From Escherichia coli (GTDB taxonomy: Bacteria; Pseudomonadota; Gammaproteobacteria; Enterobacterales; Enterobacteriaceae): 64,000 bases of DNA. Numbering within the stretch: the first letter of the stretch is position 1; each line of letters opens with the position of its first letter. The DNA is taken from assembly GCF_041886205.1 (NCBI RefSeq), contig NZ_CP169029.1. One strand, 5' to 3'. The notes beneath the pieces were generated by a model, which saw only the letters and a list, made by a program, of their open reading frames with translations, did not search any database and was not told where the DNA came from. Shown piece by piece: positions 17,253 through 20,050 of the stretch. The position numbers and the translations under genes are program-made.

Positions 17253-17340
17253 GGTGAGGTGTCCGAGTGGCTGAAGGAGCACGCCTGGAAAGTGTGTATA
17301 CGGCAACGTATCCGGGGTTCGAATCCCCGCCTCACCGCCA
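17253..17340 (+). tRNA. serW: tRNA-Ser (anticodon GGA), long variable arm, encoded CCA
   Basis: ggtgaggtgtccgagtggctgaaggagcacgcctGGAaagtgtg...ggttcgaatccccgcctcaccgcca. The acceptor stem pairs (ggtgagg/cctcacc), the T-loop GGTTCGAATCC is present, and the anticodon loop is ctGGAaa. Confidence 0.95.
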
Positions 17341-17351
17341 TATTTAAAGAA

Positions 17352-17381
17352 GAGCTCGTACGAAAGTACGAGCTTTTTTTT
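17352..17381 (+). terminator. Rho-independent terminator after serW
   Basis: gagctcgtac-gaaa-gtacgagct hairpin followed by ttttttttc. Confidence 0.85.
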
Positions 17382-17383
17382 CG

Positions 17384-17531
17384 CATTTTATCTGCCTGTA
17401 CGGCAGTGAACATGGTGGGCGGGTGGAGTATGTTACCAGTGAATTTCTAAGCTGCCTGTACGGCAGTGAACGCCAACTTTCACAGCCTTTGCAAGATTGT
17501 TCCTTTCTAAGCTGCCTGTACGGCAGTGAAC
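17384..17531 (-). CRISPR. Orphan type I-F CRISPR mini-array: 3 repeats (28 bp), 2 spacers (32 bp each)
   Basis: Minus-strand repeat GTTCACTGCCGTACAGGCAGCTTAGAAA is perfect at 17504-17531 and 17444-17471. The copy at 17384-17411 keeps the first 20 nt and diverges in the last 8, as a terminal repeat does. Spacers are 17472-17503 and 17412-17443. No cas genes occur anywhere in the window. Confidence 0.9.
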
Positions 17532-17682
17532 TCAAATACTACACGTTTAGCCCGTTGTTAATAAAGCAAAACCATCTCATTTTCCTGCTGTCACCCTTTT
17601 TTATCCTTACCTTCCAGCAGCACTAATTATCAACAACTTACCTTCACCTCCAAAAATAGGGTTTTCACCGTTCCACCCCATA

Positions 17683-17720
17683 AATAAAAAGTCCGCAACC
17701 TCTTTCGAGATTACGGACTT
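17683..17720 (-). terminator. Rho-independent terminator after clpA
   Basis: On the minus strand: aagtccg...cggactt hairpin followed by tttatttat, ~25 bp downstream of the clpA stop. Confidence 0.7.
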
Positions 17721-17743
17721 GACCAACCTACCTAACAATCAGA

Positions 17744-20020
17744 TTAATGCGCTGCTTCCGCCTTGTGCTTTTGTGCACTCTGGAATCCGTAAGTCAGCTC
17801 ATTTTTCTCTTTATCCAGCGCGACGGTGACCTGACCGCCGTCCACCAGCGAACCAAACAGCAGTTCGTTGGCGAGCGGTTTTTTCAGGTTGTCCTGGATG
17901 ACACGCGCCATCGGACGTGCGCCCATTGCCCGGTCGTAACCTTTCTCGGCCAGCCAGTTACGCGCTTCCTGGCTCACTTCCAGAGAAACACCTTTCTGAT
18001 CCAGCTGAACCTGCAACTCGACGATGAATTTATCCACCACCTGATGAATCACGTCGGTTGACAAATGATCAAACCAGATAATGTTGTCGAGACGGTTACG
18101 GAATTCCGGTGTAAAGATCTTCTTGATCTCTTCCATCGCATCGGTGCTGTTATCCTGGTGGATAAGACCAATGGATTTGCGCTCAGTTTCCCGTACCCCG
18201 GCGTTGGTGGTCATCACCAGCACCACGTTACGGAAGTCCGCTTTGCGTCCGTTGTTATCGGTCAGCGTACCGTTGTCCATCACCTGCAACAGAATATTGA
18301 ACACGTCCGGATGCGCTTTCTCGATTTCGTCCAGCAGCAGCACCGCATGTGGATGCTTGATTACCGCATCGGTCAGCAAACCGCCCTGATCAAAACCAAC
18401 GTATCCCGGAGGCGCACCAATCAGACGGCTGACGGTATGGCGTTCCATATACTCGGACATATCAAAGCGCAGAAGCTCAATGCCCAACGCTTTCGAAAGC
18501 TGTACCGTCACCTCTGTTTTCCCGACCCCGGTAGGACCGGCAAACAGGAACGAACCGACCGGTTTATGTTCGTGACCTAAACCTGCACGCGCCATCTTAA
18601 TGGCTTCAGTCAGCGCCTCAATGGCTTTATCCTGACCGAAGACCAGCATTTTCAGGCGATCGCCGAGGTTTTTCAGGGTATCGCGGTCACTCTGAGAAAC
18701 ACTCTTCTCTGGAATGCGTGCAATACGGGCCACCACGGACTCAATATCCGCCACATTTACGGTTTTCTTGCGTTTGCTTACCGGCATCAGGCGTGCGCGA
18801 GCGCCCGCTTCGTCGATAACATCAATCGCTTTATCCGGCAGATGACGATCGTTAATGTATTTCACCGCCAGCTCTACCGCCGCACGCACCGCTTTTGCGG
18901 TATAACGCACGTCGTGGTGCGCTTCATACTTCGGTTTCAGGCCATTGATGATTTGAACAGTTTCTTCGATCGACGGTTCAGTAATATCAATTTTCTGGAA
19001 GCGACGCGCCAGAGCACGGTCTTTCTCGAAAATGTTGCTGAACTCCTGATAGGTTGTCGAACCAATTACGCGAATTTTACCGCTGGAGAGCAACGGTTTG
19101 ATCAGGTTAGCCGCATCGACCTGACCACCAGACGCTGCACCCGCACCGATAATGGTGTGGATCTCATCAATAAACAGGATGCTGTTAGTGTCCTGCTCCA
19201 GCTGCTTGAGCAACGCTTTAAAACGTTTTTCAAAGTCGCCGCGATATTTTGTGCCCGCTAACAGAGAACCGATATCGAGAGAATAAATCGTACAGTCAGC
19301 CATCACTTCCGGCACATCACCCTGAACAATTCGCCAGGCAAGACCTTCTGCAATCGCGGTTTTACCGACACCAGACTCCCCCACCAGCAGCGGGTTGTTT
19401 TTACGGCGACGGCAGAGAACCTGAATAGCACGCTCCAGCTCTTTCTCACGACCAATCAGTGGGTCGATTCCGCCCACACGCGCAAGCTGGTTCAGGTTCG
19501 TCGTGAAATTCTCCATACGTTCCTCCCCACCAGCTTGTTCTTCGCTGTTTGGCTGGCTGCCAGGATCAGAAGACTGTGTCGGCTCGTCTTTACGCGTGCC
19601 ATGAGAGATAAAGTTCACCACATCGAGACGGCTGACTTCATGTTTACGCAACAGATATGCCGCCTGCGACTCCTGTTCGCTAAAGATAGCGACCAGAACG
19701 TTTGCACCGGTAACCTCATTGCGACCGGAGGACTGGACATGGAAGACCGCACGTTGCAGTACACGCTGAAAACTCAGCGTCGGCTGTGTATCGCGCTCCT
19801 CTTCACTGGCAGGCAGAACGGGTGTGGTTTGTTCAATAAAGGCTTCCAGTTCCTGACGGAGCGCAACCAAATCCACAGAACACGCTTCCAGCGCCTCCCG
19901 GGCAGATGGGTTACTGAGCAGCGCCAGTAACAAGTGCTCGACGGTCATAAACTCATGACGGTGCTCGCGCGCTCTGGCGAAAGCCATATTTAAACTGAGT
20001 TCCAGTTCTTGATTGAGCAT
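17744..20020 (-). CDS. clpA: ATP-dependent Clp protease ATPase/unfoldase subunit ClpA
   Basis: The known N-terminus [24 protein letters not shown] starts at 20020 (758 aa); the ORF track adds 5 upstream codons. Two AAA+ modules are present ([16 protein letters not shown]). Confidence 0.97.
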
Positions 20021-20050
20021 AGGCACCTCCCCCAATTTTTATGCCTGCAT

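Follow-up and report, generated by a model that had tools for sequence, protein, structure and literature searches.

What does a two-spacer CRISPR array remember when it stands in an Escherichia coli chromosome without cas genes, and could that memory still be put to use? We examined one such array in a 64,000-nt stretch of contig NZ_CP169029.1, referred to here as the window, for which a preliminary description had located two 32-nt spacers and asked whether they target type I-F cas genes. Both the array and its two spacers were found exactly where, and with exactly the sequence, that description had given, and the spacers' GC content (53% and 47%, against 51% for the whole window) is, as had also been remarked, ordinary for E. 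coli. In the type I-F array, a 28-nt repeat recurs three times with a period of 60 nt (60 and 60); read on the minus strand, the array consists of two perfect repeats, one degenerate terminal repeat and two 32-nt spacers (Table 1).

Table 1 Coordinates of the orphan I-F array, its parts and its immediate neighbours in the window.
Feature	Position	Strand	Description
clpA (context)	17744..20035	-	ORF list and annotation of near-identical genomes; same strand as the array, upstream
Terminator-like hairpin after clpA	17720..17689		strong; terminator scan
Leader, between clpA stop codon and first repeat	17532..17743	-	AT-rich, 40% GC
Type I-F CRISPR array	17384-17531	-	three repeats, two spacers
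Repeat 1, leader-proximal	17504..17531	-	perfect I-F consensus GTTCACTGCCGTACAGGCAGCTTAGAAA; CRISPR-DR4 50.1 bits
Anti-cas3f spacer (newer; 'spacer 2' of the preliminary description)	17472..17503	-	GGAACAATCTTGCAAAGGCTGTGAAAGTTGGC; leader-proximal
Repeat 2	17444..17471	-	perfect I-F consensus GTTCACTGCCGTACAGGCAGCTTAGAAA; CRISPR-DR4 50.1 bits
Anti-cas1f spacer (older; 'spacer 1' of the preliminary description)	17412..17443	-	TTCACTGGTAACATACTCCACCCGCCCACCAT; leader-distal
Terminal repeat, degenerate	17384..17411	-	GTTCACTGCCGTACAGGCAGATAAAATG; CRISPR-DR4 29.7 bits, under the gathering score
Terminator-like hairpin after serW	17346-17381	+	terminator scan
Same hairpin, opposite strand	17374..17353	-	weak terminator
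tRNA-Ser(GGA), serW (context)	17253..17340	+	ARAGORN, Rfam tRNA; near-identical genome annotates tRNA-Ser

The assignment to type I-F rests on the 28-nt repeat with its Cas6f hairpin, the 32-nt spacers, the 60-nt period, and an AT-rich leader at one end with a degenerate repeat at the other. All three repeats were matched on the minus strand by the Rfam CRISPR-DR4 model (gathering score 35), and GTTCACTGCCGTACAGGCAGCTTAGAAA is the same sequence as most repeats of the cas-linked arrays in an I-F-positive strain (L001). The terminal repeat divides into GTTCACTGCCGTACAGGCAG, the first 20 nt, in which the Cas6f hairpin and cleavage site are intact, and the last 8 nt, which have degenerated to ATAAAATG; the intact hairpin would supply the 3' handle of the older (cas1f) crRNA. 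Since the leader lies on the clpA side and the degenerate repeat at the leader-distal end, the spacer at 17503..17472 is the newer of the two and that at 17443..17412 the older. Folded as a single RNA, the whole array gave z = -1.2.

The array is situated between clpA and serW, with infA and aat further to the left, and the kilobase around it was matched in 5,425 of 5,426 complete E. coli genomes, most closely in strain XJ5.2 (99.9%). I-F-positive E. coli carry at the same locus, in this order, clpA, an array, cas1f, cas3f, csy1, csy2, csy3, cas6f, tRNA-Ser, another array and infA. When the window was compared with such a strain, positions 18000..17444 aligned at 92.9% identity to L001 5889-6445, which covers the 3' end of clpA, the leader and the first repeats of the clpA-side array, while the serW and infA flanks aligned to the same strain at 97.6% and 99.8%. 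Relative to that I-F-positive locus, the rest of the clpA-side array, the six cas genes and the infA-side array are gone from the window. A tblastn search for I-F Cas proteins found none in the 64-kb window, and the array, having no adjacent I-F cas genes, is therefore an orphan: it occupies the clpA–serW/infA site in a window free of I-F cas genes, as expected of an anti-cas orphan CRISPR4 array, and is the orphan I-F array named CRISPR3 by Touchon and Rocha and CRISPR4.1-2, in locus CRISPR-III, by the Mojica laboratory.

An origin of the array by recombination between the two cas-flanking arrays was considered and rejected, as in I-F-positive strains serW sits between cas6f and the infA-side array; serW is kept here, and it is to the clpA-side array and leader that the orphan array aligns. 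In strain 503829 (L004 1-346), an IS100-family element (istB) lies next to serW, where the infA-side array would be, and resembles the IS100 insertion reported for strain B7A (Almendros 2014). As regards transcription, a simple consensus scan of the leader found no sigma-70 consensus promoter, and read-through from clpA was discarded as the source of the array transcript because of the strong terminator-like hairpin that follows this gene. The hairpin after serW lies only 2 nt from the degenerate terminal repeat and, scoring as a weak terminator on the minus strand too, could end the array transcript.

To trace the spacers, we searched each of them against the 5,426 complete E. coli genomes (28 Gb). 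The newer spacer occurred intact (32/32) in 520 genomes, always at unannotated array positions, and inside cas3f at 31/32 in 40 genomes and at 29/32 in 201. A 501-bp cas3f probe was found in exactly 241 of the 5,426 genomes, with the same division into 40 and 201, and this agreement between spacer and probe counts indicates that every cas3f-positive genome has the protospacer. The older spacer matched 2,578 genomes, mostly in copies of the array, including its K-12 variant; its matches to cas1f were 31/32 or 30/32 in E. coli alleles and 32/32 in E. ruysiae. The anti-cas3f spacer corresponds to the sense strand of cas3f and the anti-cas1f spacer to the antisense strand of cas1f. The sequences that match the spacers best are thus I-F cas genes of related strains, and what the preliminary description had posed as a question can be answered in the affirmative for both, with 30–32 of 32 positions matching in cas1f and 29–31 of 32 in cas3f.

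It is extremely improbable that these are ordinary phage or plasmid spacers whose likeness to cas genes is coincidental. The cas1f and cas3f matches (29–32 of 32) have BLAST E-values of 6e-6 to 3e-3 against 28 Gb, the protospacer recurs in every cas3f-positive genome, and matches with at most one mismatch are expected by chance at no more than 3e-7 (3e-7 over the 28-Gb collection, 9e-14 within one cas operon). With both spacers concatenated, a blastn search of 50,697 phage and 72,556 plasmid records returned only partial matches with E-values of at least 1, the best of which covered 33–48% of the query. None of these is significant, so that matches solely to phages or plasmids, which the preliminary description had said would tell against a cas origin, were not what the search produced. 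A scan of IMG/VR with the cas3f spacer pattern found nothing, and one with the cas1f spacer pattern found two contigs, namely a chromosomal clpA–cas1f–cas3f fragment and another orphan array; both are E. coli chromosomal sequence and were rejected as phage sources. Although filed as viral, UViG_2547132270_000003 (L073 1-4910) aligns to E. coli clpA, the array and cas1f–cas3f, at 92–96% to L001.

Nor is it in any way probable that the two 32-nt segments are leftovers of cas genes deleted in situ rather than acquired spacers, even though the cas operon of I-F-positive strains sits at this very locus. Both are exactly 32 nt in length and bounded by perfect repeats; with respect to the operon, the cas1f segment runs antisense and the cas3f segment sense. 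Their arrangement in the array is unlike a deletion scar, and the CC acquisition motif precedes each source site. Both spacers originate from I-F cas1f and cas3f, at PAM-flanked sites, and were taken up by I-F adaptation from Escherichia copies of these genes beside CC PAMs.

On the spacer-identical strand, the I-F PAM is a CC that directly precedes the protospacer, equivalent to 5'-protospacer-GG-3' in the Mojica notation. Every cas1f protospacer examined has it, as have the cas3f protospacers of the group-A, E. ruysiae, E. whittamii and E1V33 alleles; the GG/CC motif that the preliminary description had proposed to look for is therefore present at all protospacers examined except that of B2-type cas3f, where TC takes its place. 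In the group-A allele (non-B2; ATCC 43896, 503829; 40 genomes), cas1f mismatches its spacer at positions 4 and 10 and cas3f at position 19, both beside CC; in the B2-type allele (IHE3034, FDAARGOS_1284; 201 genomes), cas1f has a mismatch at position 4, with CC, and cas3f has mismatches at positions 10, 13 and 19, with TC. Other Escherichia were included as species representatives, all with CC at both genes: the E. ruysiae allele has no mismatch in cas1f (32/32) and one, at position 10, in cas3f (31/32), the E. whittamii allele has one in cas1f (position 28) and three in cas3f, and the allele of Escherichia sp. E1V33 has three and two, respectively. The E. ruysiae protospacers (L058 3118-3149 and 4684-4715) are closer to the spacers than any E. 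coli allele examined. All mismatches fall at third codon positions and are synonymous, leaving the encoded peptides identical; the sole exception is the change in the PAM of B2 cas3f, which replaces Pro by Ser.

Every E. coli cas1f allele examined differs from the older spacer at position 4. This position lies inside the I-F seed, which is said to have been placed by Wiedenheft in 2011 at positions 1-5, 7 and 8. Mismatches in the I-F seed weaken interference while still supporting primed adaptation (PMC4678832), and the TC flank of B2-type cas3f is the motif written 'GAC' by Almendros (2012), where it gave little interference. On this basis we predict direct interference with group-A operons via the cas3f spacer, and with E. 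ruysiae-type operons via both spacers. Against B2-type operons, only weak interference, or priming alone, is predicted, because of the seed mismatch in cas1f, the lost cas3f PAM and the three cas3f mismatches.

The seed mismatch in E. coli cas1f, the PAM loss and three mismatches of B2-type cas3f, and E. ruysiae-type alleles that are still fully targetable would together imply an arms race, with a barrier that works against certain alleles only and from which present-day I-F operons of E. coli may have escaped. Judging from the sequences, we consider this rather unlikely. When the two protospacers were compared with all 34-nt windows of cas1f–cas3f across five Escherichia alleles, no excess divergence was found at either, and the mismatches therefore resemble ordinary synonymous changes that have accumulated since the spacers were acquired from an old Escherichia I-F allele, rather than escape; neutral synonymous drift is the simpler reading. 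In the annotation of the I-F-positive B2 genomes, csy2 is interrupted by an internal stop and clpA by a frameshift in IHE3034, and csy1 by an internal stop in FDAARGOS_1284. Effector genes are thus broken in some I-F-positive B2 genomes, indicating that the I-F system is decaying in some of its carriers.

Of the 5,426 complete E. coli genomes, 520 have the cas3f spacer in an array and 241 have cas3f itself; the two never occur together, a mutual exclusion that is confounded by phylogeny and by the fact that spacer and cas genes occupy one locus. Arrays of about 2,300 of the 5,426 genomes (after subtraction of the 241 cas-positive ones) have kept the cas1f spacer or a close variant. Strain STEC299 (NZ_CP022279.1) is, among the matches listed, the only genome with two places matched by the cas3f probe. 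The annotation of one place as 'HD domain-containing protein' points to a cas3f that is split or rearranged; STEC299 is probably also the single genome with two spacer-match places.

The orphan array exists in several forms. K-12 and O157:H7 hold the cas1f spacer only, and the K-12 copy of it carries T6A; the cas1f spacer of the window is the O157-type variant, not the T6A variant of K-12. STEC276 has three spacers, with a 4-nt deletion in its cas1f spacer. In the terminal repeat, K-12 MG1655 and STEC276 share a G-to-A change in the hairpin stem (CAGACAG; alignment columns 418-445), whereas the window and O157:H7 keep CAGGCAG. The stem change and the 4-nt deletion point to decay in certain lineages.

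Two further spacers, from other orphan arrays, match cas3f beside CC PAMs and support the view of these arrays as directed against cas genes. The third, leader-proximal spacer of STEC276 (L007 281-313), AACCTACCGTCTTGGCTAGCGGTTGCAGCGAAC, targets cas3f with a CC PAM and 1–2 mismatches. Its protospacer (L001 8951..8919) and the one matched by the window's cas3f spacer are on different strands, at a distance of about 50 bp. According to one published account, the acquisition of successive spacers from nearby sites on both strands is a product of primed I-F adaptation (PMC4117759), and the extra spacer of STEC276, judged by position and strand, looks like such a primed acquisition. The leader-proximal spacer of UViG_2534682060_000012 (L074 3903-3934), TCGACGGGGTGCGGTAAAACCTTTGCGAACGC, matches group-A cas3f at 32/32 with a CC PAM (L001 9590-9621). 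This contig is filed as viral, yet is E. coli chromosomal sequence, with the leader, the array and the serW terminator.

The array is an already-known feature, described in 2010 and tested experimentally in 2016 in other strains. The published analyses that the preliminary description had referred to, of cas-less CRISPR4 arrays whose anti-cas spacers act as a barrier, do exist: Touchon and Rocha (2010) put forward the barrier hypothesis and reported that 'spacers 1 and 2' of the orphan array target Cas1 and Cas3 (PMC2886076). As reviews relate the experiments of Almendros et al. (2016), orphan arrays are constitutively expressed, a plasmid bringing in I-F cas genes is destroyed by its own Cas proteins together with the resident crRNAs, and primed acquisition follows the destruction of the plasmid (PMC8616872, PMC5972030).

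Taken as a whole, these observations are best explained by a remnant anti-cas array that blocks incoming I-F cas genes, a reading that we hold to be very probable. In its favour, the array is structurally intact and has a conserved leader; against it speak the position-4 seed mismatch of every E. coli cas1f allele examined, the TC flank and three mismatches of B2-type cas3f, the outcome of the simple scan, which found no sigma-70 consensus in the leader, the terminator of clpA, and the decay seen in some lineages. In the absence of Cas proteins the array would be inactive, and the mechanism is modelled on published work with other strains. When an I-F cas operon enters the cell, incoming Cas6f would cut the resident pre-crRNA, the incoming Csy complex would load the anti-cas1 and anti-cas3 crRNAs, incoming Cas2/3 would degrade the incoming cas DNA, and primed spacer uptake would strengthen the attack. 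That the array is a functional memory and not debris, as the preliminary description had suggested in case the cas matches were real, would follow by analogy with the published experiments in other strains.

The array might instead be a fossil of autoimmunity, in which ancestral spacers against the cell's own cas genes selected for cas deletion (Diez-Villasenor 2010) and were then kept by inertia, with no present function. Such a history would fit spacers that match Escherichia I-F alleles of the same locus, and a spacer order and protospacer proximity that look like a priming cascade; it would also fit the decay seen in some lineages and the seed or PAM mismatches of extant E. coli alleles. 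Against it stand the two perfect full repeats of the window, the intact Cas6f hairpin in its terminal repeat, the retention of the cas1f spacer or a close variant in about 2,300 of 5,426 genomes, and the argument of Touchon and Rocha that spacers otherwise disappear rapidly (PMC2886076). Native orphan arrays are, moreover, described in the reviews as interfering with I-F cas plasmids (PMC8616872, PMC5972030). We therefore regard a functionless fossil as unlikely, noting that the two theories are not mutually exclusive (Vercoe 2013), and retain a blocking anti-cas array as the preferred reading.

It has already been published that a cas-less array can serve as a working genetic memory, turning incoming CRISPR-Cas on its own genes, and that anti-cas arrays help explain the absence of I-F systems from most E. 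coli (bioinformatics in 2010, experiments in 2016). The present analysis adds a census of 5,426 genomes, a map of PAMs and mismatches for each cas allele, the perfect cas1f protospacer of E. ruysiae, and a predicted leakiness of the two-spacer allele towards B2-type I-F genes.

Compared with the orphan anti-cas arrays reported from E. coli (Touchon and Rocha 2010; Diez-Villasenor 2010; Almendros 2014, 2016), the array of the window shows no difference in kind: locus, repeat, leader and degenerate terminal repeat are the same, cas genes are absent, and the spacers are directed against cas1f and cas3f. With the cas-linked I-F arrays of E. coli (CRISPR4.1 and 4.2 of LF82, ED1a and ATCC 43896) it shares the 28-nt repeat, the 32-nt spacers, a homologous leader and the CC (GG) PAM. 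According to the literature, however, those arrays flank the cas operon, contain roughly 6 to 22 spacers and mostly target plasmids, whereas the array studied here has its targets in the very cas genes that it lacks. Self-targeting by the I-F system of Pectobacterium atrosepticum (Vercoe 2013) is related in that a crRNA whose match lies in the cell's own DNA has a toxic effect and selects for loss of the target by deletion; there, a complete system meets a chromosomal target, while here the effector genes are absent and incoming effector genes would be the target. Viruses and mobile elements have cas-less mini-arrays and solitary repeat units that likewise work only in trans, with Cas proteins encoded elsewhere. 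Those are carried on mobile DNA and turn the Cas proteins of the host on competitors, whereas the array of the window belongs to the chromosome and would turn an invader's Cas proteins on the invader itself.
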